IMG/VR virus record: IMGVR_UViG_3300029788_000157
Source of the DNA: a virus
Direction: 5' to 3' (one strand)
DNA: 64,000 bases
Shown: one piece after another, positions 20,913-49,388 of the stretch
How positions within the stretch are numbered: position 1 is the first letter of the stretch
How the letters are laid out: every line of letters begins with the position of its first letter
Made by a program: the position numbers and the translations under genes
The notes under the pieces: generated by a model
Told to the model about the DNA's origin: nothing
What the model saw: only the letters and a program-made list of their open reading frames with translations
Database searches by the model: none

Positions 20913-20929
20913 ATGTTGTTGTCAAGTAG
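20913..20929 (-). promoter_or_regulatory. sigma-A-type promoter (TTGACA-N17-TATCTT on the minus strand) overlapping operator ATGTTGTTGTCAAGTAG
   Basis: Conserved operator/-35 block. Confidence 0.45.
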
Positions 20930-20943
20930 TTATTTGATATAAA

Positions 20944-21747
20944 TTACATAGATTTAAGGTTTTTTAGAATCCATGCTATAACATCTACCGTCCAACCATT
21001 TCCACACAATTCCACTCTTTTTGAAGCAGATTTTACACATTCAGTAAAGCCATCTGGTAGTGTCTGCAATCTTTCAGCTTCAATAGGGTGTATTTTTCTA
21101 AATGAATATTCACCAAGATAAATATTATTTTTGTCATTACCAGAAGAAGGCAGCGTATTCATCTTGATAGTATTATATCTGGCTCTATTTTGTTGTGAAT
21201 AATTTCCTTTTCCGCTTGTATCCCAACTAACAATAGTGTTATCCCTATTAAATCTAATTGTATCTTTGTATTTCTCAAAGCTTTTAATATCATGTTTGCA
21301 TGAATACTCAATATCTTTAATAACTTTATCAGAATGTGGATACTCTTTTGAAAATGGTATATTAGTCCAATACAACCTTTTTCGCATTTGAGCAGAAAAC
21401 TCCATTGAATTTATTTCAACAGGTTCAACCTGTAATCTTTTGGAAATTTCATTTTGAATATCTTTAGATATTGAAGAATTGTTTTCATATAAAAAATACT
21501 CGCAATGGCTTTCATTCAATGCCCTTACAAACTGCATAAACAACTTGAATCCCATGCCATCACAAGTAACCTCTCTATCTGCTCCTCCTCTTGCAATACT
21601 CCAGTATGTACATGGACTTCCACCAATCAGCAAATCAAATCCCTGATATTGCGTGAAATCTCCTTCAAATACATCTCCTAAATATTCATCAGATGGATAA
21701 TTATATTTCGCTACAGCATTGGCAGCTTCTTCTATTTCATACGACAC
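20944..21747 (-). CDS. dcm: DNA (cytosine-5)-methyltransferase (annotated from GTG; conserved motif I lies upstream, see findings)
   Basis: GGSPCTYWS is motif IV (PC box) and YFLYEN the ENV-like motif. The frame continues upstream to ~21876 and encodes VLSLFNGISCGRVALERAGI (motif I), but no in-frame ATG/GTG/TTG occurs there. Confidence 0.6.
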   Translation of the reverse strand: MSYEIEEAANAVAKYNYPSDEYLGDVFEGDFTQYQGFDLLIGGSPCTYWSIARGGADREVTCDGMGFKLFMQFVRALNESHCEYFLYENNSSISKDIQNEISKRLQVEPVEINSMEFSAQMRKRLYWTNIPFSKEYPHSDKVIKDIEYSCKHDIKSFEKYKDTIRFNRDNTIVSWDTSGKGNYSQQNRARYNTIKMNTLPSSGNDKNNIYLGEYSFRKIHPIEAERLQTLPDGFTECVKSASKRVELCGNGWTVDVIAWILKNLKSM

Positions 21748-21854
21748 ATATCTCTCTACTGGAATACCAGCTCTTTCTAAAGCAACTCTTCCGCATGATA
21801 TTCCATTGAATAAACTTAATACTGTAATCCCCTTATCTGGAATTACTCTTTTAT

Positions 21855-21912
21855 GTTGGGTGGCTTCCTTATTTTAAATACTTTGTAGTATTCATTTATT
21901 TAGCCACCCAAC
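21855..21912 (-). promoter_or_regulatory. 11-bp-stem hairpin (GTTGGGTGGCT..AGCCACCCAAC) enclosing a small uORF and sequestering the 5' end of the C5-MTase reading frame
   Basis: Perfect inverted repeat; the second arm begins the motif-I-encoding frame. Confidence 0.4.
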
Positions 21913-22017
21913 ATTTTTATATTATTCTCAAACGAAAGGAGCTTATTTTATGCTTTTTGAACCTCATAAAAGAGTAATTTTATGTGTACTCAAAGTCCTT
22001 ATTTTAAAGCTTTAAAA

Positions 22018-22040
22018 GGTATAACCTTAATAGTTTGCAT
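22018..22040 (-). promoter_or_regulatory. motif A upstream of the structured leader of the C5-MTase
   Basis: ggtataaccttaatagtttgcat. Confidence 0.4.
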
Positions 22041-22548
22041 AGCAACTAAGTTTTTTTTGTACCTTTTTCTTTAATTGTCTTTCATATCGTTCTGACACAT
22101 TCATCAGAACTGCAATTTCTCTACCTTTCAGTCCTTTTAAAAGATAATGAACTAATGTTTGTTCCTGTTCGTTTAAAACACCAAGAAGATATTCGCAATG
22201 CATATTTCCTATCACATCATCAATGACAGATTTAGAGTCAGCAAATGTCTCAGCGAAACTTTCTTCTCCCTCACTATCTGTTGATGCATCGTAAGATAGT
22301 ATGTTTTCCTCTGGAATACTCCTTTTTAAACTAATAGCTCTCCAATAATCATTAATTACGTTCTGCATACAAGAATACGCATATGTTGAAAATGTATTCT
22401 CATTCTCTGAAGAATAAGAAGTTGCTGCATTACATAACCCTATCGCAAGTAATCCATAATAATCTTCAACTACTAAATTTCTCTTTTTTGCAAAATCATA
22501 AATAAGATTATGATTTTCCTCTGCTAATTTTTGCTCTTTTTCTGTCAT
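22027..22548 (-). CDS. sigma-70 family sigma factor
   Basis: Region-2-like YSCMQNVINDYWR and region-4 HTH REIAVLMNVSERYERQLKKK. Confidence 0.65.
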   Translation of the reverse strand: MTEKEQKLAEENHNLIYDFAKKRNLVVEDYYGLLAIGLCNAATSYSSENENTFSTYAYSCMQNVINDYWRAISLKRSIPEENILSYDASTDSEGEESFAETFADSKSVIDDVIGNMHCEYLLGVLNEQEQTLVHYLLKGLKGREIAVLMNVSERYERQLKKKVQKKLSCYANY

Positions 22549-22567
22549 TGATATTCTACCTTTCTTG

Positions 22568-22849
22568 CTATTTTATTGTGTACACCGCAACATTCCTTAA
22601 ACTGATTTCATCAAATCGCTTTCCGATAATAATAACTCTTCCATCGTCAACCAGTTCTGTCAGTCGAGGTGCTGTAGCTTGTCTTTCGTTGCTTCTTAAC
22701 AAGCCTTGATTATAAAGAATAACCGCTACTTCTCTTGCTGTCAGCCCATTTTCTTTATTATCATGTAAAGTTGACAGAATTAAATTATACAATCCATTTC
22801 TATCCAATTTTTCAAGACTTTCAAATCTTGTATCGGTTGTAATTGACAA
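22568..22849 (-). CDS. winged-helix DNA-binding protein
   Basis: 93 aa with an HTH-like segment LTAREVAVILYNQGLL. Confidence 0.4.
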   Translation of the reverse strand: MSITTDTRFESLEKLDRNGLYNLILSTLHDNKENGLTAREVAVILYNQGLLRSNERQATAPRLTELVDDGRVIIIGKRFDEISLRNVAVYTIK

Positions 22850-22861
22850 CTTTATACCTCC

Positions 22862-23620
22862 TTAAATTGCAACAGGTAAATCATTCGGTGTATAAACTGG
22901 CATTGGTTTTAGCTTGAAAATATTCTTCTTATGCATAGAGTCAATCTTATGTTTGATATTTTCATCTTCACATTCACCTGTTCTGATATATCTGTTAAGT
23001 ATTGCATATGAAAATCCCAAATTATCTTCATCTGTAAGTCCACACAAGCCATCAATCGGAACTTTTCTTGTCAACTCTTTAGGTAATCCAAGATACTCTC
23101 CAATAGCAATTACTTCATCTGTTGTAAGCAGAGATAATGGACTAAAATCACCAGCTCCATCACCGTAACGTGTAGCGTATCCAACCCAATCTTCACTAAG
23201 GTTACAAGTATTTGCCACTCTGCCATTTAAAGTCTGTGCAATAGCATATAATGTAACCATTCTAATTCTTGCTGGAAGATTAGTGCTTGTCTGCATACTC
23301 CAATGGTCACACAATTGAGGTTTGATTTCATGTTTCAATGATTTAATTGCCCCATGAATGTCCACCGTATAGTTTTCAATACCAAGATGTTCAACAAGTT
23401 TGTATGCCATATCAATATCTGACTGTTCACCATTTGGCATAAGAACACCAATCACTCTATCTTTTCCCAGAGCTGCTACACATAATGCAGCAACTACGCT
23501 TGAATCTTTACCACCTGAAATACCCACAACAGCATTACAACCATTTCCATTAAGTGAAAACCAGTCCTGAATCCATGCGATAATTTCTTTTGTTGTCTTT
23601 TCTACATTAAATTTATACAT
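22862..23620 (-). CDS. nadE: NH3-dependent NAD+ synthetase
   Basis: GISGGKDSSVVAALCV PP-loop; ~250 aa. Confidence 0.8.
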   Translation of the reverse strand: MYKFNVEKTTKEIIAWIQDWFSLNGNGCNAVVGISGGKDSSVVAALCVAALGKDRVIGVLMPNGEQSDIDMAYKLVEHLGIENYTVDIHGAIKSLKHEIKPQLCDHWSMQTSTNLPARIRMVTLYAIAQTLNGRVANTCNLSEDWVGYATRYGDGAGDFSPLSLLTTDEVIAIGEYLGLPKELTRKVPIDGLCGLTDEDNLGFSYAILNRYIRTGECEDENIKHKIDSMHKKNIFKLKPMPVYTPNDLPVAI

Positions 23621-23680
23621 TCTGTACTTTCCTTTCTATTCAATTTGAGGTGGACTTTCATCCACCTCACTAACAGTTGC

Positions 23681-24208
23681 TTAACCTAAATCATATCTCC
23701 AAATTTCTACATCTACAGAAGATTTACCAAACACATCCTGAATAATTTTATACACATCATTCCAATTTGCACCACCTCTATAGCTTCCAATTCGATATGG
23801 CATAGCAACTGTCGCTCCAATCTTTTCAGCTTTCTCACGAATATCCAAGAAAGCCATTTTCATTGCAGTTAAATCAGTCTGCTGCTCATCCATACCAAAA
23901 TTCTTCTGACCAAAAAGATTGACAATATACTGATACTTAGAATCATATGCTTCAACATTTTCATTCTTCATAGTATCAACCATTACCATAGCCCATGTAT
24001 CAACTGGAACATACTGAACTGTTCCAAGCATTTCAATTTTATTCTTATTACAATGCTTCACATATTTAACATATGCCTTTTCAACATGAGGGTATCTGTC
24101 GGCTACCTGTGCTGCTACACCGCTTCCCATGACACCTAAACAATTTGTCTGGTGTACGATAAAATTTGCATCTGAATCAAAAAGATTTCCATTGATGTTT
24201 TTAATCAT
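23681..24208 (-). CDS. macro domain (ADP-ribose binding/processing) protein
   Basis: Start MIKNINGNLFDSDANFIVHQTNCLGVMGSGVAAQ matches the macro-domain N-terminus; start placed at the internal Met to remove overlap with nadV. Confidence 0.5.
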   Translation of the reverse strand: MIKNINGNLFDSDANFIVHQTNCLGVMGSGVAAQVADRYPHVEKAYVKYVKHCNKNKIEMLGTVQYVPVDTWAMVMVDTMKNENVEAYDSKYQYIVNLFGQKNFGMDEQQTDLTAMKMAFLDIREKAEKIGATVAMPYRIGSYRGGANWNDVYKIIQDVFGKSSVDVEIWRYDLG

Positions 24209-24221
24209 TTTTATCCCTTTC

Positions 24222-25976
24222 TTAGAATCCTTTGCTTTCTGCATGGATGCTATTTCTGATTTCATTTAATGTCTGGTTACGAACAACCTTACCATTAAGG
24301 AATACAGTCTCAAGCATATTAATATCAGACTCTTTCACATCATCTGTTACAACCTGACCCTTTTGGATTCCATCAATATATTTGATTTCTCCATCTTTGT
24401 TACGATATACTCTGACCATACCCTTCTGAGATTTCTTAACACCATCACCTGTTTTCGGGTCTTTATAAACCAAAATAGGTTTACCATTGATTTCAGCATA
24501 TGTAGCTTTATAAGCCCAGCCCTGTGTATCTCTTGTGTTATACTGGAAACTGTAAGAACCAGCACCAAATACTACATTTTCAACTGCATAGCCAAGGTTA
24601 GTCATATGATTACAAATGCTTTCACATCTTTCAAGTGTAATAGCATCTCCGTACACCATTCCAATATGAGGGTCTAATACTTTATACCCCTTAGAGTTTA
24701 TAGTTCCACCGAAAATCTCCCAAAGAATATCCAGTGTTCCTCTCTCTTCAATAGTGGCATCACGATATGTGAATGTGTCGTTTTCACCATCATTAGACCA
24801 TGTAGCAATATATTTCTTATTTCCAATCTCAAGGTAAATTGGAACAAGCTGTCCAGACGTATCTGTTTCATTGCAATAAAGTGACTGCATCATTGGACTT
24901 CTGGTATAGTAAGATTCAAATGCTTCTTTACTTTCATGGGCTTTCCACATTGGGGCAATACCACAAATAATCTCTTCTGGGTCACCGCTGTCAGGTCTAA
25001 TATTGATTCTGCCTGTATGATTAAGAATTACATCCTTATTTTTTCTAACAATATTGTCAACAAAATTCCAGTAATCATAACTGTCTGCCACAAAGCTGAA
25101 AGGTTTATTTGGATAAAGCTCTTTACACATTCTTACAAAAAATGTTTCTTCATCTCCATCTACTGCATAATTGCTTGTAGTACAAGAATGTTCAACAGAT
25201 GCAGACCAGCTTCCAACATCCTCATTTTCAACATCAGCTCCATAGTAATCACAAAGATACTGAATTGAAGGGATTGTAGATGTTTTATCGAAGCTTGTTA
25301 AAAATGCAGCTCCGCTTGTAATAGCAGCATCAAGACTAGCCATACCTCTAAAAGAAAAATCGCCACAACCAACTCTCTTCCAATTCGGATTGTCAGATGT
25401 TAAAACAATATATTTTTCAATAATCTTTCTGTAAATATAAGCTCTTGTTGCTGTTGTTGTAGGTAACCATAAATTACAAGAAAATAATGTCTCAAGATAA
25501 TTTGTTACCCATGCAAAATCAGGATGTGTATTTTCGACTGTACAACAAGGTACTCTATATGGTACTTTTGTACCTTCTGGCAAAGCCTTAATCTCAATCG
25601 GGAGATAGCCAAGTTTATGAAGTGCTTCAATATGTTCTGTATGAGCATTTTCATCAAATGTATTATGGATATACAATTTATACTCATTAAGCACTTCGTC
25701 TAACGGTCTATCAAAGAAATATTCATTAAACTGTTTTACCAAATATTCCTTAATAAATCCCTGTAATCCAAACCAGATTACAAATTTGCTCTGAGGAAAG
25801 AATTTATTACTACGTGGTGTCCAAGTGGAATACATCATTGTCATTCCATCTGGGTACATAGCCCGATGTGCAATTTTATAAAAATCGCATAATAACATCA
25901 TATTCTTCATTTTACTTATCCTCCTTACAATGGCATCCACAACCGCAATCACACACGTTCTCAGCATAATCAACAT
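24222..25976 (-). CDS. nadV: nicotinamide phosphoribosyltransferase-family protein (NadV/NAMPT or Namat-like)
   Basis: LCDFYKIAH and GYLPIEIKALPEGTKVP...VENTHPDFAWVTNYLETL align with NAMPT signature segments. Likely start is the ATG at 25910, 1 nt after the prs stop. Confidence 0.7.
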   Translation of the reverse strand: MLIMLRTCVIAVVDAIVRRISKMKNMMLLCDFYKIAHRAMYPDGMTMMYSTWTPRSNKFFPQSKFVIWFGLQGFIKEYLVKQFNEYFFDRPLDEVLNEYKLYIHNTFDENAHTEHIEALHKLGYLPIEIKALPEGTKVPYRVPCCTVENTHPDFAWVTNYLETLFSCNLWLPTTTATRAYIYRKIIEKYIVLTSDNPNWKRVGCGDFSFRGMASLDAAITSGAAFLTSFDKTSTIPSIQYLCDYYGADVENEDVGSWSASVEHSCTTSNYAVDGDEETFFVRMCKELYPNKPFSFVADSYDYWNFVDNIVRKNKDVILNHTGRINIRPDSGDPEEIICGIAPMWKAHESKEAFESYYTRSPMMQSLYCNETDTSGQLVPIYLEIGNKKYIATWSNDGENDTFTYRDATIEERGTLDILWEIFGGTINSKGYKVLDPHIGMVYGDAITLERCESICNHMTNLGYAVENVVFGAGSYSFQYNTRDTQGWAYKATYAEINGKPILVYKDPKTGDGVKKSQKGMVRVYRNKDGEIKYIDGIQKGQVVTDDVKESDINMLETVFLNGKVVRNQTLNEIRNSIHAESKGF

Positions 25977-26847
25977 TCATAGCAAACACAGTTACATTTT
26001 CATCACTCTTAAAAGGATAAATGCTATCTGTTGTGAACACATGGTCAATCAGCTTTCTGTGCTGAGTTGTTCCAAAAATACTTTTCTTTTCATAGTCCAC
26101 TGTAAGAAGATTCATTTTATCGTCACCAAACTGACCATCATAAATACTCTTTTCACAATGAGAAACAAACAGATAAATGTTTCTTGCTCCCATCTCTTTC
26201 AATTTCTTTGCTGCATAATAGAAAGTTCCACCCTTACTACAAATATCATCACGAATAAGAATATCTCTTCCTTTAATATCTTCAGGTTTAATCCCCATAA
26301 CATCTAATCCAAGAATCCGACCTGTTTCCCATTCTCTCTTCTTAACACCAAATGCATACGGAATCTTAATCCCTTTGGAATATCTCTTCATAGCCCCCTC
26401 ATCAGGGAAAAACATAATCGGTGTAATACCATCGTGAATCAACATATCAAGCACGTTGCTCACAAAAATATTAGTATTGATTACATTGCAATTCTTGATA
26501 GTTGCTGCTACAACACTTGAATGTGGGTCAACTACAAATACTCTGTCAAAATTCAGAGAATTAATCATTTCTGCAAAATACTTCATAGCAAAAATATCAT
26601 TTGGCTCTTCGATTCTGTCCATTCTTGCGTTAGGTACATATGGAAGGAAAAGAGATACATTCATTCCATGTGCCTGATAGAATTTTGTTAAAAATGAAAC
26701 TGCTACAAACTCAGCATCATCCTCATAATTCCAAGTAATAACAACTGTTTCTCCCTGTAAGCTAACATCACCTTTTACATTTGCTGTTCCATCAGGAAAT
26801 CTCTTTACTTCAACTTCTTTTCCATTTACTCTAATCATAATCTTCAC
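25912..26847 (-). CDS. prs: ribose-phosphate pyrophosphokinase-family protein (Prs or ADPR-pyrophosphokinase Adps-like)
   Basis: Prs-like segments FLPYVPNARMDR, DRVFVVDPHS and a PRPP-binding loop; unusual Cys-rich C-terminus CDCGCGCHC. Confidence 0.7.
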   Translation of the reverse strand: MKIMIRVNGKEVEVKRFPDGTANVKGDVSLQGETVVITWNYEDDAEFVAVSFLTKFYQAHGMNVSLFLPYVPNARMDRIEEPNDIFAMKYFAEMINSLNFDRVFVVDPHSSVVAATIKNCNVINTNIFVSNVLDMLIHDGITPIMFFPDEGAMKRYSKGIKIPYAFGVKKREWETGRILGLDVMGIKPEDIKGRDILIRDDICSKGGTFYYAAKKLKEMGARNIYLFVSHCEKSIYDGQFGDDKMNLLTVDYEKKSIFGTTQHRKLIDHVFTTDSIYPFKSDENVTVFAMNVDYAENVCDCGCGCHCKEDK

Positions 26848-26880: not shown

Positions 26881-26889
26881 GACTGTTAT

Positions 26890-27525: not shown

Positions 27526-27576
27526 AGTTTTAACTCCTTTACATTCATATTATCGTTGATTATGATTAACCAACAG

Positions 27577-27660
27577 TGCTGGTGATGGGATTCGAACCCA
27601 CACGTTGTTTCCAACAATAGATTTTGAGTCTACCTTGTCTGCCAGTTCCAACACACCAGC
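27577..27660 (-). tRNA. tRNA-Leu (anticodon CAA), long variable arm
   Basis: Hand-folded: acceptor GCTGGTG/CACCAGC, anticodon loop CTCAAAA, T-loop TTCGAAT. Confidence 0.6.
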
Positions 27661-27664
27661 TTAG

Positions 27665-27737
27665 TGTGCCATATGGGATTTGAACCCATGACCCTTTGAT
27701 TAAAAGTCAAATGCTCTACCAACTGAGCTAATGGCAC
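27665..27737 (-). tRNA. tRNA-Lys (anticodon TTT)
   Basis: Hand-folded: acceptor GTGCCAT/ATGGCAC, D-arm GCTCAGTTGGTAGAGC, anticodon loop CTTTTAA. Confidence 0.6.
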
Positions 27738-28027
27738 ATATCCATAATGACCTTTCATAACATTATGGCGATTTGAGCGATTTCCATTTCTGTTTCATAA
27801 GAATTTTCAGATATTCTCTTATCTTACTTTTTTACTTGAATTATATATCATTTCAAATTCTAAGCTATCTTATAACGGTACTGTGTCTGGGGCTACTCCA
27901 GAGCTGCTAATTTAATAGCTGTCTAATTATCAGTGACACTCCTTTAGTTTTACGTTTCATTCGGGCTTTTGCTCCAATTCTTAATAATGCACACCATATA
28001 GGCGAAACGACAGGTTTTGATATTTAA

Positions 28028-28099
28028 CTGGGGTAATCGGATTCGAACCGATGTATGCAGCAGTCAAAGTGCTGTGCCTTACCGCTTGGCGATACCCCA
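28028..28099 (-). tRNA. tRNA-Gln (anticodon TTG)
   Basis: Hand-folded: acceptor TGGGGTA/TACCCCA, anticodon loop CTTTGAC. Confidence 0.6.
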
Positions 28100-28396
28100 A
28101 TGGGTAGATACAGTTTAACCTATAATTAGTAGCTAATCTAATTATGTTCTCCTACTGTCTAAAGGATGCACATTTTCATTTTAACCCACGCATTGTCTGC
28201 ATTTACAACACTTGAACACTGACGCAGTTCCTTACGCTATCTTCAATATAGCTGTTTATGTTTCTCCAGTGGCGAACTGGCAATGGTTAGCCAACCCATA
28301 TATAATGAAAATAGTCTAAGCGTTAGATAGATTGCTCTATCCGCTGGAATCGTACCAGCCCATCAACTATTGTTGAATCGAACCTCGCTTATTTCG

Positions 28397-28418: not shown

Positions 28419-28547
28419 TGTTAAAAGAAATTTTGTTTTCTATCTCTTAACTTGTGTTTAGTATAGCATATTCGTTTCTACTTGTCAACAACTTTTTTAA
28501 AGTTTTTATCACTTATTTATGTTGTTGTAAAATAGTTACCGTTCCTG

Positions 28548-29849
28548 TTATTTTACAAAATTAACTGATTTCGCTATGTTCTTTGCTGCATTAAAATCCG
28601 CATTTTCTTCATGACCACATTTAAGACATCTAAAATAAGATTGACCCTTTTCATTTTTGGGTCTATTCTTTTCATCCACATATCCACAACAACTACAGGT
28701 CTGAGAAGTATAATGTGGGTCTATTTTTCTAACCTCAATGCCATACTTATTTGCTTTGTATGTAATAAAAGACTGTAATTGATAATACGACCATCCTTTT
28801 AAAAATTTATTTACATTTTTACCTTTTGTAATTCCAGACAAATCTTCTATGTTAATATATTTAGCTTTGTTTTTTAAAGCAAAATCAATTACTTGTTTAC
28901 TAATATAATGATTATATGATTGAACCCAATTTCTTTCATAATCAGTAAACTTATCCATTGTTTTTAATTTTCTTTTTCTGCCATGACCACCTTTAGTCAT
29001 TTTAAGATTTGTCTGTAATCTACTCTTTTGATGTTGAATTTTTGTTTTTACTCGCATAAAATCATTTACACTACCAATATATTTTCGTGAATAATCATTT
29101 ATATTTAATCCACAAACCGCTGGTATTGCAATACCAACATCCACTCCAACTACCACATTTTCATCTAATTCCCTCTTTTCTTTTGGAATATCCATAGAAA
29201 GATTTAAAATAATTTTTCTTCCATCAATTTCTATAGAACTACTACAAACCTTATAATATTCTTCGAAAATCATTTGTATTTCGTGTCTAAGTGAAGCAGA
29301 TTTTTTCACATTTCCCAAAATTAATTTAAACGTAATATTATTAGCAAATTTAATAAACACTTCCAAATCTTTGTTATCTAAATGTTCCAAAAATTCTGCA
29401 TGATTTTTATAATTATGATATAAACCAGAATCACGATGCGGATTGTTGCTTCTTAAACGAACATAATCAACATGAATCAAAAGCGGATTATCACTTCTAT
29501 ATGTAGGTAAAGAGACTTTTCCATACATTAACCCATTTTTACAAGATTGTTTAAAATCCTGTTTTACTTTCATAGATAAACTTGAAGCAACTGGCAAACC
29601 TTTTGGAAATACAATATCTTGTGAATACGCAGAACCTTTTTTACTATTTGAAATTCTGCCATATAACTGATTCAATTCTTTTCTATCTTCTTTACTAGCT
29701 TTATTTAATTCTGCTAAATATAACGCAGACATATATTCATTCATAGCTTTATTTTGAGAAATCATACCTTCTCTTATATAATTAAAAACTCTATTTACTT
29801 CATCATTATTACCAACTATTAATAATTGAATTTTTCTTGTTAAAATCAT
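28548..29849 (-). CDS. tnpB: TnpB (IS605 OrfB) RNA-guided endonuclease-like protein
   Basis: RuvC-I VGVDVGIAIPAV; C-terminal HYTSQTCSCCG...FRCLKCGHEENADFNAAKNIA zinc finger plus RuvC-III. Confidence 0.85.
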   Translation of the reverse strand: MILTRKIQLLIVGNNDEVNRVFNYIREGMISQNKAMNEYMSALYLAELNKASKEDRKELNQLYGRISNSKKGSAYSQDIVFPKGLPVASSLSMKVKQDFKQSCKNGLMYGKVSLPTYRSDNPLLIHVDYVRLRSNNPHRDSGLYHNYKNHAEFLEHLDNKDLEVFIKFANNITFKLILGNVKKSASLRHEIQMIFEEYYKVCSSSIEIDGRKIILNLSMDIPKEKRELDENVVVGVDVGIAIPAVCGLNINDYSRKYIGSVNDFMRVKTKIQHQKSRLQTNLKMTKGGHGRKRKLKTMDKFTDYERNWVQSYNHYISKQVIDFALKNKAKYINIEDLSGITKGKNVNKFLKGWSYYQLQSFITYKANKYGIEVRKIDPHYTSQTCSCCGYVDEKNRPKNEKGQSYFRCLKCGHEENADFNAAKNIAKSVNFVK

Positions 29850-33464: not shown

Positions 33465-33701
33465 CTATCCAATCTTTCTCAAAGATTCTTCTCTATATTG
33501 ATTAATCCTTCCACTATCCAATTTTACTTGCACGTACTTTCTATTGTATTGTGGTGGATAATCAATATATCGAATTACTTCTCCAGTGCCTTTTGTAGTT
33601 CCACAACTACTTTGTATTTCAACTCTATTACCTTTACAGAATCGCATTAATACTGTACAGCTTCCTGTCTGGTGATAAAGAAATGGATTCCAGCAGCACA
33701 T
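33465..33701 (-). CDS. hypothetical protein
   Basis: 78-aa ORF. Confidence 0.35.
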
Positions 33702-35695: not shown

Positions 35696-36049
35696 TTAGA
35701 TAACAACCAAAAGTTTATAAGTAACACTATGTATCCGAAACACAAATTCATACTGTGCTTCGCTATATTTCTTGAACATACACTCTGTAATTTCATTTTG
35801 TAATACATTGAATAAGAATGTATGTTTTCTATCATTCTTGTAAAAGATGATTCTGCCATCCTCAATACTTCCCGACACTTTCTTTTCAGCAAGTCTTGAT
35901 AACAACATATAGGGATTCTCAATATAAATATCCATGTGGATTTCTGATAATTTCAGAATTGTTGACTGCAAAACTTTTAAATCATTATCATTTGCAAATC
36001 CACAATTCTTATAATTTTCAATCTGACTCATAGAATTGACTCCTTTCAA
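35696..36049 (-). CDS. hypothetical protein
   Basis: ORF from the track; start uncertain. Confidence 0.35.
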   Translation of the reverse strand: MKGVNSMSQIENYKNCGFANDNDLKVLQSTILKLSEIHMDIYIENPYMLLSRLAEKKVSGSIEDGRIIFYKNDRKHTFLFNVLQNEITECMFKKYSEAQYEFVFRIHSVTYKLLVVI

Positions 36050-36230
36050 CTAGACAAGAAGTTTTAGATGTGCTAAAATATGGTTGCACAAATATACCTC
36101 TTGTTGGTAATTTAGATGCTGCCTTCGATAGTCGCTCGCCAAAGTCATTATCGAAGGTATTTTTTATTGTATGGACATAATACCATAAATCAAAATGTTT
36201 TGCAAGATTATTTCGAACAAGTGTTCTGTC

Positions 36231-37184
36231 TTATTCTTCGAAAACATCAATATGTCCTTTAACTATTTCTCTAAAAGCTCTAACTTCGTTGTTATAATTA
36301 CATCTTTCCAGCTCTTCAGAAATAATCCTGTGTATTGTTCTGTCTTTCTCTTCTCTTCCAAAGGCTTCCTGTAATGTTATATCATGTTCTGCAAAAATGT
36401 TTTTCAGTCTGTACATGATACCACTTATATATAATTGCATTGGAAGTAAATTATATTCGACATACTCTTCAGAAATCTTTCTCAATTTATTATAGTAACT
36501 AAATTTAACATTTGGAGAATCATTTCTACTTTCCAACTTAAAAACTGTATCTGGATAATCGCCATGCACTTTCATTTCAAATACTCCATAACGATTTTTG
36601 CGTTCCCATGTATCAGTTTGAGATAATTCAATCAAATCTCCGCATAATTCAGATGAAATTTCTAAATCATATCTATGTCCATTTGATTCTTCTAATGTAA
36701 CTTTATTTCCTTGAATGTGAGAACCCCTAAGATTCTTTATTACACTCATATCATTATTATAAATTCCTTCATATAGACAGGAAAATAATGCTTGATAATA
36801 TAACGTATTTAATGGTTCAAAACATTTTATGTCATGAATCACTTCTAAATATTTTTTATGAGATATAAATTTCTGTGCTGCTTTAGGTTTAGCTTTCATC
36901 CATAACACTGACCTGTCCATTGATTGAATCATTTGGTACAGATTATCATTATCAACCAGTCCATCATTTTTTAGCCATTTAGCGTATAACGATAATACAT
37001 AACATATTGTAGTTATATCTTTTTGACTTTTTGGTTTTGAATCCAATATTAGATTCTCCAATTGGATTAGATTGTAATTGATGATGCCATTCCAGTCATG
37101 TTTCGAATTAATTATCGCTGCTTTAACAACCTTTTCCGTATTAGGAGATTCTATTGAGTTTATAAATCTATCTACATTACTCAT
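36231..37184 (-). CDS. hypothetical protein
   Basis: 317-aa ORF downstream of a sigma-A/operator promoter at 37343. Confidence 0.4.
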   Translation of the reverse strand: MSNVDRFINSIESPNTEKVVKAAIINSKHDWNGIINYNLIQLENLILDSKPKSQKDITTICYVLSLYAKWLKNDGLVDNDNLYQMIQSMDRSVLWMKAKPKAAQKFISHKKYLEVIHDIKCFEPLNTLYYQALFSCLYEGIYNNDMSVIKNLRGSHIQGNKVTLEESNGHRYDLEISSELCGDLIELSQTDTWERKNRYGVFEMKVHGDYPDTVFKLESRNDSPNVKFSYYNKLRKISEEYVEYNLLPMQLYISGIMYRLKNIFAEHDITLQEAFGREEKDRTIHRIISEELERCNYNNEVRAFREIVKGHIDVFEE

Positions 37185-37342
37185 GATATGCTCCTTTCTT
37201 TTTCGTTGTTGTTCTTTTATTTCAGCTAATATTATTATACGTAAATTGCCTTAATTTTAGGAACTAACAACCAGATATTTTTTTATTTTTTCTGTAGAGA
37301 TATGTATTTCATCTCTGTATCTATATATTAGCATACATGAGT

Positions 37343-37360
37343 GTAGTTGTCAACAACATT
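37343..37360 (-). promoter_or_regulatory. sigma-A-type promoter (TTGACA-N17-TAATAT) overlapping operator
   Basis: tgtagttgtcaacaacat. Confidence 0.5.
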
Positions 37361-37390: not shown

Positions 37391-37747
37391 CTAACCAGAC
37401 ACAACTCCATATCCTTCATTGGGTTTACAAGTTACAATAAGCTCAACACCATATGCCTTTTCTATCTCTTTAATATGGTCTATTCGCCTTAAAATAATAC
37501 TTTCATGTACATTGGTATATAATACCATGTACTTTCTGCCAGAATCAAAATCTGGATTTGCTCTCAGTTCTCTGGACAATTCAAAACAAATAGCCTGTAA
37601 GAACTCTTCAAATGTATCTGCATCGTAAATAATTGCATTTGGAACTGTATTAAGCTCTTCTTTGTAAGACGCAACCTTTACACCATTTTCCTTTGCCAGC
37701 ATACCAACGATATACGCTTTACCAGCAATGCCCTTTAAAAGTAACAT
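37391..37747 (-). CDS. hypothetical protein
   Basis: Start moved to the internal MLLLKG because motif A occupies 37763..37782. Confidence 0.4.
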   Translation of the reverse strand: MLLLKGIAGKAYIVGMLAKENGVKVASYKEELNTVPNAIIYDADTFEEFLQAICFELSRELRANPDFDSGRKYMVLYTNVHESIILRRIDHIKEIEKAYGVELIVTCKPNEGYGVVSG

Positions 37748-37762
37748 ATAATCTCCTTTCAA

Positions 37763-39040: not shown

Positions 39041-39132
39041 AATGTTTCCTCCTTGATATTTAAAATGTTGTGTTTGTGTGTGTTGGGATTTTTATTTCCC
39101 TCTCTTAACTTAACTACATGATACCATATATT

Positions 39133-39149
39133 CATGTAGTTGTCAAGTA
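39133..39149 (-). promoter_or_regulatory. sigma-A-type promoter (TTGACA-N17-TATCAT) overlapping operator; drives the DUF262 gene
   Basis: atgtagttgtcaagtag. Confidence 0.5.
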
Positions 39150-39164
39150 GTTTCAAAATATTTT

Positions 39165-39959
39165 TTACATATATTCTAAACCAAGTTCTACAGAATAATA
39201 CATATCGGCTACTTCTTCATCCTGTAAACCGATATATTTCATTGTTACCTGTGTGCTGGAATGACTAAAGCAACATTGTAACATAACTAGAGCTTTCTGC
39301 TTATCTTTGGCATTATGCCAACACCAATAACCCCAGCTCTTTCTAAGACTATGAGAACCAATGTTCTGTACAATACCAGCTTCTTTTGCTGTATCACTTA
39401 TAATTCGCCACAACGATGCTACAACAATAGGTTTCTCTCCTTTTCTGGAGGTAAATAAATACTCATTAATATTATCGTAAGGATATTCAGATAAATAATC
39501 TTGTACTGCTTTTTTTACAGTCTGATTAAAATAGAGTTTAACGAATTTACCCTGTTTTCTCTGCTTCATCGGTTGTAATACATAGACATCTTTAAATGTA
39601 CCATCTTTATTCAAAAAGAATGACCATTTAAGTGTTCGCAAATCACTTGCACGAATCCCCACATTCATACCAATAAAAAATAGCAGTCTATTTCTATATG
39701 CAATCTGTCTTTTGTTATCGTCTGGTGCTTCTGCAATATGCTTATCAAATATCTGCACCATAGCAGCAATATCTTCCTCTGTCTTAAAAGCATAAACTTC
39801 AGAACTCTCTCCTGATTGTTTATTACAATGAGTACGCTTAACGCTGCCATCTTTATTATACAGTTTTTCGGGCTTTCTCTGGGCTTTCCCATCAACAACC
39901 ATAAGTTGAATCACATTTGAATTTTCACTCTGCTCAATAGCAGCGTTTGTTATATTCAT
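39165..39959 (-). CDS. tyrosine recombinase (phage integrase-family catalytic domain)
   Basis: Catalytic R in IRASDL, HSLRKSWG (HxxR) and a C-terminal Y in TMKYIG. Confidence 0.65.
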   Translation of the reverse strand: MNITNAAIEQSENSNVIQLMVVDGKAQRKPEKLYNKDGSVKRTHCNKQSGESSEVYAFKTEEDIAAMVQIFDKHIAEAPDDNKRQIAYRNRLLFFIGMNVGIRASDLRTLKWSFFLNKDGTFKDVYVLQPMKQRKQGKFVKLYFNQTVKKAVQDYLSEYPYDNINEYLFTSRKGEKPIVVASLWRIISDTAKEAGIVQNIGSHSLRKSWGYWCWHNAKDKQKALVMLQCCFSHSSTQVTMKYIGLQDEEVADMYYSVELGLEYM

Positions 39960-39960: not shown

Positions 39961-40359
39961 TTACTCCTCCTTTACCCAGTATCCATACATAGAACATTCT
40001 CCAGAATCCCATGTGTCAAAATAATGACCATCCTTGCTACATACATAATGATTTGCCACAATTAAAACGTATGTGCCTTCTAAATGTTCTTTTGTAAAAC
40101 TATCAACAGTAGGACGCTTTGTACCTTTCTTATTACTGATGCCTGTATAAACATATCCTTTGCTTTTTAGAATATGCTCAAATCCATATTTGCAATTCAT
40201 TGGACACTGAACTTCTCTGGAAAGTCTATACATCATATCATAAGCATCAAGCCATGAAAGATTCTCTGCTTTACAGATTGTTCTGATAGCACAATCTCCA
40301 TAATTGTCTTTCAAGTCTTTATCATTAGGTTGATAATAAGTATATCTTCTTTTGCTCAT
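39961..40359 (-). CDS. hypothetical protein
   Basis: 132-aa ORF with its own sigma-A/operator promoter. Confidence 0.4.
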   Translation of the reverse strand: MSKRRYTYYQPNDKDLKDNYGDCAIRTICKAENLSWLDAYDMMYRLSREVQCPMNCKYGFEHILKSKGYVYTGISNKKGTKRPTVDSFTKEHLEGTYVLIVANHYVCSKDGHYFDTWDSGECSMYGYWVKEE

Positions 40360-40402
40360 ATCAATTACTCCTCTCTTAACTTAACTACATGATACCATAT
40401 AT

Positions 40403-40419
40403 TCATGTAGTTGTCAAGT
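40403..40419 (-). promoter_or_regulatory. sigma-A-type promoter (TTGACA-N17-TATCAT) overlapping operator (near-identical duplicate of the 39133 site)
   Basis: atgtagttgtcaagtag. Confidence 0.5.
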
Positions 40420-40425
40420 AGGTGT

Positions 40426-41139
40426 TTAGATTCTCTCTATACTATTTTTATTCAACTCAAAGAGATTAACAACAACTTCGGACTCTCCTCTGCTATCAAA
40501 ATAAGCTAAAATATTTGACCTAGATATATCTACCTTTAAAATATACCCTTCTTCACTACCAGTATCATATCTATGAGCAAACCATTCTGCTTTAGAATAA
40601 TCAGTTGTCCATGATAGACCATGAGGATTTCTATTTACTGCAACACCTCTATACACTGTTAAACACTCTGGGAAATCTTTATATACTTTATACTCCTGTT
40701 CATCCATCAGTATTGTTTTATTGCAGCTCTTAAACCATTTGACAATAGTTTTTAAAGATACGTTTACATCTCCATTTGGATTTTCGCTGGTAACCCATGC
40801 ATGAGCTAACAATTCAGACATATCATTAACCGACAGATATTCTGTTATATACTTGATAAAAGTCAATCTGTATGATTTTCTGATAACTAAATATACATCA
40901 TACACTGTAGCAGCACTATCAATAGTTTCACACACTTGATTCTGAACCTGTTTCAAATTATCTTCATTTGCTGTTATATCAACCATTTTCATTTCGCCAT
41001 TAACTTTAATAGCTTGTATTCCTGTTTCAAAAATTGGATGCATAACAAACATAGGATATAATGATGTTTCAGTTACTTCGATATAAACAAATGATTTTGC
41101 AACCGATTTGATTGCATTTATATCAGATTTCTTTTTCAT
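40426..41139 (-). CDS. hypothetical protein
   Basis: 237-aa ORF with its own sigma-A/operator promoter. Confidence 0.4.
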   Translation of the reverse strand: MKKKSDINAIKSVAKSFVYIEVTETSLYPMFVMHPIFETGIQAIKVNGEMKMVDITANEDNLKQVQNQVCETIDSAATVYDVYLVIRKSYRLTFIKYITEYLSVNDMSELLAHAWVTSENPNGDVNVSLKTIVKWFKSCNKTILMDEQEYKVYKDFPECLTVYRGVAVNRNPHGLSWTTDYSKAEWFAHRYDTGSEEGYILKVDISRSNILAYFDSRGESEVVVNLFELNKNSIERI

Positions 41140-41208
41140 TTTGTTTTCTTAACAACTCCTTTTTCATTTTCTCTCCGTATTCTGTACAAATACATTGTAT
41201 CACTTTTC

Positions 41209-41228
41209 TATGTAGTTGTCAACTACAT
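41209..41228 (-). promoter_or_regulatory. sigma-A-type promoter (TTGACA-N17-TACAAT) within a 19-bp near-perfect palindromic operator ATGTAGTTG-T-CAACTACAT
   Basis: tatgtagttgtcaactacat. Confidence 0.5.
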
Positions 41229-41797: not shown

Positions 41798-41885
41798 AAA
41801 TAAATAATAGCATATAAATTACCTTAAATCAAGTCCTTTTAAAACAAAAAGGGATAAAGCCTTAAACTTTATCCCTTTGCCTTTT
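41798..41885 (+). ncRNA. candidate small RNA (motif A followed ~50 nt later by an intrinsic terminator; no ORF)
   Basis: Plus-oriented motif A at 41777..41797, then hairpin AAAGGGATAAAGCCTTAAACTTTATCCCTTT and a T-run; both flanking genes are on the minus strand. Confidence 0.25.
41848..41878. terminator. bidirectional intrinsic terminator hairpin AAAGGGATAAAG-CCTTAAA-CTTTATCCCTTT
   Basis: GC-containing stem flanked by A-runs and T-runs on either side. Confidence 0.5.
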
Positions 41886-42099
41886 ATTCCTCTTCGGTTG
41901 TATCTCCCAAGTCTACACTCAGGTTGTTGGATTTTCCGAACTTCAATGTAAATTCTCCATCTGCAAACTGCTTCATGAATGTTTCAATAATAATATTCAT
42001 ATTGATACCTGACTCTTTGCAAGTGTCCTTGAAAGCTGCCAGAACCTCTTCATTGATGGTAGTATTTAACATTGCTCTCTTAGGTTTAATACTAGCCAT
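41884..42099 (-). CDS. small hypothetical protein
   Basis: Start set at MASIKPKR, preceded by SD GAAGGAGAA. Confidence 0.35.
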   Translation of the reverse strand: MASIKPKRAMLNTTINEEVLAAFKDTCKESGINMNIIIETFMKQFADGEFTLKFGKSNNLSVDLGDTTEEE

Positions 42100-42175
42100 G
42101 TTTAGTTCTCCTTCGATAATTTTTTTATGGACTATACAATCTTCCATAATAGATTAACTATATGATACCATACAT

Positions 42176-42194
42176 TCATGTAGATTGCAAGCAT
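42176..42194 (-). promoter_or_regulatory. sigma-A-type promoter (TTGCAA-N17-TATCAT), operator variant
   Basis: tcatgtagattgcaagcat. Confidence 0.4.
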
Positions 42195-42223
42195 ATTTTA
42201 TAAATTTTCCATGATGTACCAAT

Positions 42224-42753: not shown

Positions 42754-42775
42754 TGTATAACTTTAACTATTATCA
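42754..42775 (-). promoter_or_regulatory. motif A (variant), followed by motif C and then a gene
   Basis: tgtataactttaactattatca. Confidence 0.3.
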
Positions 42776-43092
42776 ACTAATTTTCCAGCCTTATATAATT
42801 CCTGTTTGTATCTTCTATGTTCCCTTTGAGTCGCAGCCCATTCTTCCTTCGATGGTTTATATCTTCCATCCGCTTTTCTTTCTTTGAGTTGTTGTGCTGC
42901 TACTTCGGCTTTCTCAGGAAAAAGAATGAAACTTATTAAACGTCTTGACACATTGTATTCTCTTGCCAATGCTCTTTGAGAGAAAATTCCAAGCTCATAC
43001 TTATGTCTTATTTCATCTTTCTGTTCGTCTGATAATTTAACCCTTCTATCCTGTTCTCTTGATAATTTGATTCTTTCTGATTTGTATGGCAT
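42763..43092 (-). CDS. HTH DNA-binding protein
   Basis: FSQRALAREYNVSRRLISFIL helix-turn-helix. Confidence 0.5.
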   Translation of the reverse strand: MPYKSERIKLSREQDRRVKLSDEQKDEIRHKYELGIFSQRALAREYNVSRRLISFILFPEKAEVAAQQLKERKADGRYKPSKEEWAATQREHRRYKQELYKAGKLVDNS

Positions 43093-47230: not shown

Positions 47231-47237
47231 GAATTGG

Positions 47238-47522: not shown

Positions 47523-47544
47523 CTTTTTTCTCCTTTTATCTTTA

Positions 47545-47608
47545 TTTGTGGATTCCCACGACACTCCCAACTTCGGGAGTGTTTCGGCTGCTATCCCTGT
47601 CAGCCATC
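47545..47608 (-). ncRNA. type I hammerhead ribozyme (HH2, one extra U between A9 and helix II)
   Basis: RNA CCCAC-CUGAUGA-U-GGCUG..CAGCC-GAAAC-ACUCCC GAAGUU GGGAGU-GUC|GUGGG. Confidence 0.6.
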
Positions 47609-47619
47609 ATCAGGTGGGG

Positions 47620-48063: not shown

Positions 48064-48096
48064 AATATTTACCTTCCTTTTCCTATATTTGGGTAT

Positions 48097-48158
48097 AATC
48101 CCGACTCCCTGATATTCAGGGAGTTTCGTCTTAATTTTCAAAGACTCATCAGGGGATT
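48097..48158 (-). ncRNA. type I hammerhead ribozyme (HH3)
   Basis: RNA AAUCCC-CUGAUGA-GUCUU UGAAAAUU AAGAC-GAAAC-UCCCUGA AUA UCAGGGA-GUC|GGGAUU; all three helices are canonical. Confidence 0.75.
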
Positions 48159-48416
48159 TTATGCAACTCTTATAACTTCATCTAAATAGATTCTTAAAGA
48201 ACCTTTTCTGATAAAAGCTCTACCAGAAGTTGAGTAGTGTACCATATGTTTATGAAAACCCCACTCATTTTCGCCATTATGCCAACTGCATACATAATCA
48301 CAATCGTATTTATCATTTTCATCAGGTTCGTAAACCTGAAGTCCAAAAGTACCACTGATATATGCAGCTCCTACTGGTTTCTGATTTGCGTATCTTTTAT
48401 ACATAGCTTCCTTCAT
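48159..48416 (-). CDS. hypothetical protein
   Basis: 85-aa ORF with a structured leader. Confidence 0.4.
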   Translation of the reverse strand: MKEAMYKRYANQKPVGAAYISGTFGLQVYEPDENDKYDCDYVCSWHNGENEWGFHKHMVHYSTSGRAFIRKGSLRIYLDEVIRVA

Positions 48417-48528
48417 TTTTATTTACCTTCCTTTTTACCTTTTTATAGGGTTTTCCCTACCCCATCCCCGAAGGGATGGACGCTTGCAACCTAAAGGGCT
48501 ATTTATACACGTTGCAACGTGTTATAAT

Positions 48529-48549
48529 GTATAACCTTAATAGTTATGC
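48529..48549 (-). promoter_or_regulatory. motif A, followed by a 16-bp palindrome and two hairpins before the gene
   Basis: tgtataaccttaatagttatg. Confidence 0.4.
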
Positions 48550-48843
48550 TAAACAAGAATCATCACAAATATCTTTGTTATCAATAGCTTTTTCAATAGC
48601 TTTCTTGTTTACACTCCAGCCTAAAAACTGATATAAGAACTGATACAAGTATTTCATAGTAGTTACACTATAATCCCAGTCTCTACCCAGTGTGAGCTTC
48701 GCAGCTCCCTCTTTTGAGTTGTCAATGATTGCAATAGTGCTGTCATAAGACTGGAATACAATTCTAGTATCATCTCTGATAATAAACTGATTTGCTACTT
48801 CTCTACCACTTCTTGAGCTTGTCATGTTTTCAACTTTCATCAT
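48544..48843 (-). CDS. hypothetical protein
   Basis: Start at ATGATG after SD AAGGAAGG; motif C and motif A lie upstream. Confidence 0.4.
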   Translation of the reverse strand: MMKVENMTSSRSGREVANQFIIRDDTRIVFQSYDSTIAIIDNSKEGAAKLTLGRDWDYSVTTMKYLYQFLYQFLGWSVNKKAIEKAIDNKDICDDSCLA

Positions 48844-48886
48844 AATTTTATACCTTCCTTTTTTATAATCTCTTTTTACTTTGTAG

Positions 48887-48917
48887 CCACTCACATTTTT
48901 ACAATCGGACTTGTGAC
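48887..48917 (-). promoter_or_regulatory. motif C (spacing 19)
   Basis: ccactcacatttttacaatcggacttgtgac. Confidence 0.35.
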
Positions 48918-49013
48918 CGCCTTCGGTATGTTTAACCCTGATAAGATTTTACACGTATTGCAAATAGTATATACGCAACTTATAACCACATGGGTAGCAC
49001 TCAACTATTTTAG

Positions 49014-49035
49014 TGTATAACCTTATCAGTTAGTA
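49014..49035 (-). promoter_or_regulatory. motif A, followed by motif C and then a gene
   Basis: gtgtataaccttatcagttagt. Confidence 0.4.
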
Positions 49036-49216
49036 AAAAGATAAAAGGAAAAGGAATATTCACTTTCCTGAAGCGTTACTTTCTAAAGTGGACAAGTCAC
49101 ACCTTATACGGACTACTTCAGGCACTTATTAAGTTATCAATGTGCAGTTACAAACAACTTTTTGCTTCGCTTAATTGCTTTGCTTTGTTCTTTGTATCTT
49201 TATACTATCATATCTT

Positions 49217-49234
49217 TATGTAGTTGTCAAGTAG
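49217..49234 (-). promoter_or_regulatory. sigma-A-type promoter overlapping operator; first of two tandem leftward promoters at the hub
   Basis: tatgtagttgtcaagtag. Confidence 0.45.
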
Positions 49235-49368
49235 TTATTTTAACTTTTTTAAAAAGTTTTTTGCTGCTTTTCAACTGCTTTTTATATGATGTTTTAAAGG
49301 TACTTTACAACTCCGCTTTGTTTTCTTGCGTTGTCTTGTTTGTTTGTAGCTTTATATTATCATGCTTT

Positions 49369-49388
49369 TATGTAGTTGTCAACTACAA
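49369..49388 (-). promoter_or_regulatory. sigma-A-type promoter (TTGACA-N17-TAATAT) within the palindromic operator; second tandem leftward promoter
   Basis: tatgtagttgtcaactacaa. Confidence 0.45.

Follow-up and report, generated by a model that had tools for sequence, protein, structure and literature searches.

The 64,000-nucleotide stretch of the IMG/VR virus record IMGVR_UViG_3300029788_000157 analysed here (hereafter the window) carries eight leftward promoters that share a phage-specific block of sequence laid over and beside the −35 box. These sites are supported, from their sequence, as a coherent class of near-consensus early promoters of the host σA type, at which initiation is predicted. 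We favour, with modest confidence, a reading in which they are operator-promoter cassettes resembling the SPβ repeated elements (SPBRE), governed by a repressor of the SroF/MrpR type within an early regulon like that of SPβ. In that case the block over the −35 would be the operator of a master repressor and the functional counterpart of SPBRE, and a 317-aa homologue of MrpR/YopR/SroF would be the most likely repressor. The binding of a protein to the block, the identity of the binder and the repression of transcription are what we infer from the observations below.

All eight sites of the original prediction (20913, 37343, 39133, 40403, 41209, 42176, 49217 and 49369, numbered cassettes 1 to 8 in Table 1) were recovered by 19-mer, 12-mer and position weight matrix (PWM) searches. 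The 19-mer ATGTAGTTGTCAACTACAT, with at most three mismatches, gave nine strand-matches at six loci for 0.03 expected; the 12-mer core recovered an additional site at 20914, and the site 42176 is a degenerate copy, TTGCAA TCTACAT (TTGCAA at 42190). Strict TTGACA-N17-TAnnnT occurs eight times in the 64 kb against 1.4 expected, always on the minus strand, and seven of these matches are the sites under study, the eighth being a variant promoter at 28488. With the PWM, built over −41 to −7, the eight sites scored 38-47 bits for a best shuffle score of 19, and the runners-up were a decayed copy at 28531 (24 bits) and the 28488 variant (15 bits). A near-identical 130-kb IMG/VR contig spans the window, and the scan of the 18.8 kb that it adds beyond the window's left end revealed an extra site, AACTAC TTGACA TCTATAT, at 30 bits.

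The minus-strand consensus of the eight sites reads (A/T)nCTAC/GTAG–TTGACA–ACTACAT–N10 (with TGn)–TAnnAT. A spacer of 17 nt and the TGn are found in every site and TTGACA in seven, so that the TTGACA-17-TATAAT-like arrangement first proposed holds for the spacing throughout and for the −35 hexamer everywhere except at 42176, which has TTGCAA. The −10 hexamers are, in site order, TATCTT, TAATAT, TATCAT, TATCAT, TACAAT, TATCAT, TAGTAT and TAATAT, and the hexamers agree with the consensus at 10-11 of 12 positions, in addition to the TGn. All eight sites are wholly intergenic, in a region with only 14% of intergenic bases, and all stand upstream of minus-strand genes in the same orientation, over a span of 28.5 kb; ribosome-binding sites are visible at the four that were read through to the start codon (20913, 40403, 41209 and 42176). 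The expected intergenic enrichment is thus observed, and the idea of one host-type promoter class sharing a non-promoter block over or beside the −35 is upheld. The sites also lie, as far as their sequence context tells, where a repressor-controlled early or lysogeny class would be expected, in intergenic regions and pointing leftward into early genes. They had been thought to drive single small genes, which fits some of them; 40403, 39133 and 20913 are positioned to drive more than one.

Information content is maximal at the cTAC just before the −35, at TTGACA and at the ACTACAT directly after it, and then at the TGn and the −10. The phage-specific block has two parts, the heptamer ACTACAT at −29 to −23 and a hexamer, (A)nCTAC or the complementary GTAG, at −41 to −36, which form with the −35 a contiguous element of ~19-24 bp; the spacer bases beside the heptamer vary freely and the heptamer is constant. 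In σ70-type promoters neither −29 to −23 nor −41 to −36 are σA contact positions. That the block is not needed for σA recognition and is nevertheless the most conserved part of the sites argues for the operator reading, and the near-consensus strength of the promoters makes negative control their natural mode of regulation.

Relatives of this phage are found in metagenome-assembled genomes of gut Clostridia, among them Oscillospiraceae, Ruminococcus and Faecousia. Those whose repressor homologue is 77-80% identical keep (A/T)CTA(C/T)AT. In two loci with a repressor 57-59% identical (L174 and L175), the intergenic flanks are unalignable and AACTAC TTGACA (A/T)CTACAT is retained at the orthologous promoters; since the block has been kept where its flanks have fully diverged, the comparison suggests that it is under purifying selection. 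Further away, four promoters of L127 (56%) read CTAC TTGACA AGTAGAT, and two of these are good palindromes with the opposite polarity; L128 (54%) contains three ACCATGT and two AATAG(C/T)T. The σA hexamers are thus fixed, and the block is constant within lineages and switched between them, as expected of an immunity-specific operator. An exact 14-base scan of IMG/VR for TTGACAACTACATNA, which returned at least 120 single chance matches, was uninformative and was set aside.

The same promoters could do without any trans-acting repressor. They would then descend from a single strong promoter cassette multiplied by duplication, their likeness being maintained by gene conversion or by selection for promoter strength, through a favourable spacer, the shape of the upstream DNA or a preference of the host RNA polymerase. 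The register of the block with the −35 and the −10 is always exact, the pairs 39133/40403 and 49217/49369 are evident duplicates (the near-identity foreseen for the first pair extends to complete identity over ~52 bp), and a CTAC before the −35 and a (G/A)TAG after the −10 are found clade-wide whatever the heptamer, which looks like a shared promoter architecture. However, both parts of the block fall outside the σA contacts, the heptamer is invariant while the adjacent spacer bases vary, and the block survives within randomised flanks and switches as a unit, with AGTAGAT in place of ACTACAT at several promoters within a single genome. Moreover, other functional-looking promoters of the phage are devoid of it: in the window, a LexA-controlled TTGCAA-17-TATTAT, the TTCCTA-18-TATAAT class described below and the 28488 variant. 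We consider it quite unlikely that these promoters have no repressor.

The original prediction saw in the element a palindromic operator for a dimeric repressor. Two sites are indeed good palindromes, a perfect one of 19 bp in cassette 5 (ATGTAGTTG-A-CAACTACAT, 41210-41228, 9/9 pairs) and one with a single mismatch at 49370-49388, and a third (37341-37359) is weak. The dyad is not general: it is present in two to three of the eight sites, and four others (20913, 39133, 40403 and 49217) contain a direct repeat, AnCTAC-N5-AACTAC, with (A)(A/C)CTAC upstream and (A)ACTAC downstream at 11-bp spacing. Among 99 promoters from relatives, palindromy reached 2.37 of the 6 outer pairs versus 1.95 ± 0.11 in shuffles. 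With so modest an enrichment, the palindrome was abandoned as the defining feature, and an operator for a dimeric repressor finds no support. A monomeric binder does not require a palindrome, which explains why most sites lack one: the repressor monomer would clamp the DNA in the manner of phi3T SroF, covering the −35 and shutting out the σA-RNA polymerase.

Other copies of the hexamer were noticed in and around the promoters. GTAGTT directly follows the −10 at the sites 39133 and 40403, and the hexamer before the −35 often recurs in inverted form after the −10 (AACTAC...GTAGTT, ATCTAC...GTAGAT, AGCTAC...GTAGCT); this pairing is seen in 7 of 11 testable promoters and in three variants, a small sample that hints at a third contact point or at a DNA or RNA structure. 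Outside promoters, AnCTAC-N5-AnCTAC gave one promoter-less AACTAC-N5-AACTAC at 50807-50823 (+), in the hub between the divergent arms, a match that alone is not significant.

Which protein could read such an element? The 317-aa protein is, from its sequence and its predicted fold, an integrase-fold member of the MrpR/YopR/SroF family, with a core-binding (CB) and a catalytic (CAT) domain. Pfam MrpR_C_cat (PF22823) matched it with an E value of 9e-4, the top matches of a phmmer search against the PDB were YopR/MrpR (E 1.4e-3), tblastn aligned it to SPβ yopR (E 6e-4) and hhalign aligned the profile of its family to YopR over 224 columns (probability 88%, E 3e-6). An AlphaFold2 model with a predicted local distance difference test score (pLDDT) of 90.8 had as its top Foldseek matches the phi3T SroF-DNA structure 9rd5 (E 1.7e-10, template modelling score 0.66), MrpR 8a0a (E 3.6e-10), YopR 8bj6/8bpz and the SroF-Sar complex, Cre and λ Int following at ~1e-4, about 10^5-fold weaker. 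The family comprises at least 216 homologues, nearly all tagged PF22823 and many on contigs of 130-160 kb, and a 99%-identical cluster representative carries a precomputed PF22823 match. The Pfam scan of the protein gave no PF00589 match, and its tblastn search against phage records no match.

The neighbourhood of the gene is also conserved. Integrase-family, GmrSD_N and MrpR-like genes form a conserved trio: the MrpR-like gene follows the integrase-family gene in every relative examined with enough upstream sequence, and the GmrSD_N gene intervenes in all of them but the locus L130. No significant similarity to SPβ YopP and YopQ was found by BLASTP for the 264-aa and 404-aa open reading frames (ORFs), so that the parallel with yopP-Q-R rests only on domain family and gene order.

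The window as a whole is part of a distant SPβ-like phage and follows the SPβ-type genome plan. It is a low-GC (32%) phage segment in which a terminase, a portal protein and a polynucleotide kinase (PNK)/RNA-ligase fusion are annotated, with 18 tRNA genes found by ARAGORN and one more by Rfam (56321-56400). In tblastn comparisons with SPβ (NC_001884), a 949-aa ORF shares 43% identity with the YonO RNA polymerase over 928 aa, the terminase 50% with YonF and a neighbouring ORF 29% with YonG. These homologues stand in the same order as in SPβ, the early genes diverge leftward from the hub, and an equivalent of the HU-like YonN is encoded as well. The YonO-type polymerase accounts for the lack of σA cassettes on the late, right-hand side. 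The phage is presumably temperate. Among INPHARED phages, a near-identity search with 14 kb found no relatives; its single match, of 38 nt, is the core of a hammerhead ribozyme.

SPBRE is said to go back to in silico work by Lazarevic in 1999. In SPβ, ChAP-seq peaks (chromatin affinity purification with sequencing) of MrpR fall at ~10 SPBRE-bearing promoters, and binding is shown by both ChAP-seq and electrophoretic mobility shift assay (Kohm et al. 2023, PMC10516654). MrpR (YopR/SroF) has a tyrosine-recombinase fold, whose recombinase function has been lost in SPβ (PMC10516654). Reading NC_001884, we located SPBRE (ATACAAAnAATATGTAT) inside the spacer of TAGACA-17-TATAAT at yonP, yorZ, yosX and yorE, and upstream or downstream of the promoter at aimR, yopV and yopM. 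In phi3T, monomeric SroF encircles the DNA and reads an asymmetric box of 26 bp at 24 positions; it has many sites in the genome and is inactivated by Sar (YopT in SPβ), a small LexA-controlled antirepressor encoded just downstream (bioRxiv 10.1101/2025.11.27.690993; Chmielowska et al., PDB 9rd5 and 9rgl). This precedent of a multi-copy promoter element bound by MrpR/SroF favours the same binder here.

The likeness to SPβ extends to several levels: some ten copies of an element at early σA promoters over tens of kb (eight sites, two relatives of them and one site outside the window here), a placement within the promoter itself at yonP, yorZ, yosX and yorE, an integrase-fold repressor at the end of an operon that also contains an integrase-family gene, and the common YonO, YonF and YonG backbone. 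Nonetheless, ATACAAAnAATATGTAT is unrelated in sequence to AnCTAC-TTGACA-ACTACAT, the repressor is only 17-25% identical, the hosts are gut Clostridia and not Bacillus, and binding is here deduced. As for phi3T, the 317-aa protein finds its closest structural match in SroF, the monomeric and asymmetric read-out of ~24 bp fits the non-palindromic majority of the sites, and a small gene controlled by a LexA box lies just 3′ of the repressor gene; on the other hand, the SroF box is rich in A/T tracts and unrelated in sequence, and the small gene, a 111-aa ORF, has no detectable sequence or fold similarity to Sar/YopT. No arbitrium genes were noted among the annotated ORFs of the window, in a search that was not exhaustive.

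Two other types of early control invite comparison. With λ the window would share multi-copy operators over early promoters and an autoregulated repressor promoter. The λ operators are, however, 17-bp dyads for the dimeric helix-turn-helix (HTH) proteins CI and Cro, whereas dyads are found in 2-3 of 8 sites here, no CI-like HTH protein was detectable with Pfam among the candidates, and the sites are not gathered in one switch region but spread across 28 kb or more. The early-promoter families of large Firmicutes phages resemble the cassettes by their near-consensus −35/17/TGn/−10, their multiple copies and the tandem promoters that open the early region; they differ from them by the additional block outside the σA contacts, which here varies among relatives while the hexamers are fixed.

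The proposed circuit would work as follows. In the lysogen, all early units would be silenced together. The distal promoter of the repressor gene, which is cassette 2, has a heptamer that is deviant in every relative (ACTACAC, ACTATAC or ACTTTAT/C) and presumably acts as a weaker operator, and a proximal promoter devoid of the motif would back it, allowing autoregulated maintenance expression. Induction would proceed through the SOS response, with a LexA box governing the small gene after the repressor gene, in the position of Sar, and derepression would follow. GAAC-N4-GTTC matches the window twice, and one of the matches is the LexA box, which precedes a TTGCAA-17-TGgTATTAT promoter by 8 bp, an arrangement kept in seven relatives. 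By its position, the 111-aa ORF behind this promoter would be the antirepressor equivalent to Sar/YopT; only 10 homologues of it were found.

Two side observations concern these promoters. The proximal promoter belongs to a second promoter class, TTCCTA-18-TATAAT with AAT(A/T)TTAG after the −10, which has three matches against 0.3 expected; besides the repressor's proximal promoter, another copy heads the rightward operon leading to the YonO polymerase. The conserved 5′ leader of the 111-aa ORF (36050-36176, minus strand) contains a hairpin, ACCTTCGATAATGACTTTGGCGAGCGACTATCGAAGG, common to L172, L173 and L129, and an Rfam search with this leader returned no family at the gathering threshold.

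Several points weigh against the SPβ-type reading. At the level of the element, SPBRE is found in the spacer or up- or downstream of the promoters, whereas the block here always straddles the −35; this single fixed register counts against an operator because a duplicated promoter cassette would look alike. Distant relatives, with repressors 33-52% identical, have no comparable block at their TTGACA promoters. As to the proteins, the 317-aa protein with its 19.4 bits does not reach the Pfam cut-off of 27 for MrpR_C_cat, a search of PDB sequences with the family profile gave no match, and the 111-aa ORF gave a low-confidence model (pLDDT 61) with no match in a fold search. No integration junction was seen that would demonstrate lysogeny directly. 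Lastly, no repressor residues were found that track the heptamer class, and P0013 and P0011 are 80% identical, yet their loci have TCTACAT and (A/T)CTTTnn, respectively, in a comparison of very few sites; because of this lack of covariation, the assignment of the binder is made by analogy.

The lack of covariation between the MrpR-like protein and the heptamer class would be natural if the block were the operator of a different phage regulator, such as the 264-aa integrase-family protein (39165-39959), one of the small early proteins devoid of annotation (those of the 109-aa and 93-aa ORFs, for example) or the product of a gene beyond the window. The position of the 264-aa Phage_integrase ORF is conserved to the same degree as that of the MrpR-like gene, the two good palindromes and the slight palindromy enrichment in relatives would suit a dimeric binder, and a single promoter may carry as many as three copies of the hexamer AnCTAC/GTAGnT, differently oriented. 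Nevertheless, dyad symmetry is absent from most sites, and in SPβ and phi3T, the only studied relatives, it is MrpR/SroF that binds the element (PMC10516654; 10.1101/2025.11.27.690993). The HTH candidates first named as repressors (42763-43092 and 22568-22849) did not hold up either, with no Pfam family at E ≤ 0.01. Another regulator appears to us unlikely, and the MrpR/SroF-like protein is the binder that we prefer.

A third explanation takes the repeats for recombination sites of tyrosine-recombinase-family proteins, at which gene cassettes could be deleted, inverted or exchanged, the promoter role being secondary. The genes of two integrase-fold proteins lie among the sites, the module of the 132-aa and 264-aa ORFs is bordered by identical 52-bp direct repeats, and gene content between the sites differs among relatives. 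However, all sites have a single orientation and coincide base for base with a complete σA promoter, followed, at those read through to the start codon, by a properly spaced ribosome-binding site. Tyrosine-recombinase core sites have arms of 11-13 bp, and the arms here, 6-7 bp around 5-7 bp, are far shorter. SPβ MrpR, besides, is without recombinase function (PMC10516654). Given the orientation, the coincidence with promoters and the short arms, this explanation ranks low and is in our opinion very improbable.

The SPβ-type operator reading can be taken one step further, tentatively and with considerable doubt. In a large clade of gut Clostridia phages that resemble SPβ and have not been described before (130-160 kb, with YonO), the operator may have become welded to the −35 in a fixed register. 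The clade would keep the integrase-fold repressor and the SOS-antirepressor switch known from Bacillus, the hexamer AnCTAC/GTAGnT would be repeated on one helix face at −41, −30 and −6, and its orientation and variable base would switch from lineage to lineage (ACTACAT to AGTAGAT) and so define immunity groups. In that case, a monomeric clamp with a recombinase fold would compete directly with σ region 4, and operator and promoter would evolve as one mobile cassette.

Table 1. Positions in the window of the promoter cassettes, of related sites and of the other features discussed (inverted-hexamer examples include positions in the relatives L127 and L128).
Feature	Position	Strand	Sequence or description	Genes it is positioned to drive, or context
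Cassette 1	20897..20931	-	AACTAC TTGACA ACAACAT ...TGg TATCTT; 43.4 bits; −35 at 20920-20925, −10 at 20897-20902	66-aa ORF 20648-20848 and long operon beyond
Cassette 2	37325..37359	-	ATGTTG TTGACA ACTACAC ...TGc TAATAT; 39.3 bits	MrpR/SroF-like gene (distal promoter)
Cassette 3	39118..39152	-	AACTAC TTGACA ACTACAT ...TGg TATCAT GTAGTT; 46.9 bits	GmrSD_N/DUF262 ORF 37826-39040 and 123-aa ORF 37391-37762
Cassette 4	40389..40423	-	ACCTAC TTGACA ACTACAT; 43.6 bits	132-aa ORF 39961-40359 and 264-aa Phage_integrase-family ORF 39165-39959
Cassette 5	41194..41228	-	−10 TACAAT; 40.0 bits	237-aa ORF 40426-41139
Cassette 6, degenerate	42162..42196	-	ATATGC TTGCAA TCTACAT ...TGg TATCAT; 38.3 bits	87-aa ORF 41884-42147, followed by a terminator at 41848-41878
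Cassette 7	49202..49236	-	AACTAC TTGACA ACTACAT ...TGa TAGTAT; 43.6 bits	Proximal member of the tandem leftward pair at the divergent hub
Cassette 8	49354..49388	-	TTGTAG TTGACA ACTACAT ...TGa TAATAT; 41.5 bits	Distal tandem promoter
Two further relatives of the cassettes	28460..28537	-	Decayed copy AACTAT TTTACA ACAACAT (−35 start 28531); variant promoter AAGTTG TTGACA AGTAGAA ...TGc TATACT (−35 start 28488)	Upstream of tRNA-Gln/Lys/Leu cluster
MrpR/YopR/SroF homologue, 317 aa, candidate cassette binder	36231..37184	-		Directly downstream of cassette 2
Proximal motif-free promoter	~37211..37260	-	TTCCTA-18-TATAAT, AATATTAG after −10; core CGTATAATAATATTAG at 37226-37241	Repressor gene
Second-class promoter matches	37226-37241; 51154-51169; 5237-5252	-; +; -		
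LexA (Cheo) box	36214-36227 (region 36177..36227)	-	AGAACACTTGTTCG	Directly after the repressor stop codon
Fast-evolving ORF, 111 aa, candidate antirepressor	35696..36031	-		Behind LexA-controlled promoter and long conserved 5′ leader
YonO-type single-subunit RNA polymerase	52517..55366	+	phrog_8308; tblastn to SPβ YonO	
PNK/phosphatase/RNA ligase fusion and tRNA clusters	7061-9304; 27576-28100; 55954-57462	-; -; +		
Self-cleaving ribozyme matches	48455-48522; 48118-48172; 48884-48938	-	Pistol; type III hammerhead; twister-P1	
Inverted-hexamer examples	L127 1032, 1376, 2638; L128 8450; window 39118, 40389			

Several further features of the window deserve mention. A transposase-like 433-aa ORF (phrog_506, 28548-29849, minus strand) adjoins the decayed cassette and the tRNA promoter, and its insertion may be the cause of the decay at 28531. 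Ribozymes are found between the ORFs of the leftward early operon under the tandem cassettes: a Pistol match at 62.6 bits for a cut-off of 34.5, a type III hammerhead at 32.6 bits (E 1e-4), below its cut-off, whose core is the 38-nt stretch 100% identical to the crAss-like phages cr131_1 and cr272_1, and a very weak twister-P1 match. The hub between the divergent arms is ~2 kb of non-coding DNA (49400-51400) with G-rich GGG/TATAAAGG-like repeats at 49440-50030 and a C/A-rich stretch with ATCATCCCAAAT repeats at 50280-50830; its role could be that of an origin, of a packaging region or of a protein-binding array.

The phage appears to have its own sigma factor besides the YonO-type polymerase, as a 173-aa ORF (22027-22548, minus strand) has a Sigma70_r2 domain (E 1.4e-6) and a counterpart in the relative L130; directly upstream of it sits the ORF 22568-22849, initially taken for a winged HTH protein. 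A cluster for NAD salvage (22862-26847, minus strand) encodes an NAD synthase, a Macro-domain protein, a nicotinamide phosphoribosyltransferase (584 aa) and a protein similar to phosphoribosyl pyrophosphate (PRPP) synthetase; it is kept in L130 too and may serve as counter-defence against host systems that deplete NAD. The 747-aa polynucleotide kinase/phosphatase/RNA ligase fusion and the 19 tRNA genes, which form two clusters, resemble a kit for the repair and supply of tRNAs. The early region also encodes a pentapeptide-repeat protein with DUF5758 (406 aa, 33647-34867, minus strand) and a flotillin/SPFH protein (535 aa, 31196-32803, minus strand), and both genes recur 3′ of the repressor gene in L129, L130 and L173.

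In conclusion, the present analysis overturns nothing, as the design principle was already known. The eight sites mark the early transcription units of the phage, and their motif is a handy marker of immunity groups among relatives. The analysis delivers eight defined sequences as candidate operators, together with a candidate repressor and a candidate antirepressor under SOS control; these can be synthesised without culturing phage or host. Studies of an integrase-fold master repressor with a multi-copy operator have until now been confined to the Bacillus phages SPβ and phi3T. If the SPβ-type reading is true, this repressor system would extend to a large family of uncultured phages of gut Clostridia, with at least 216 homologues.

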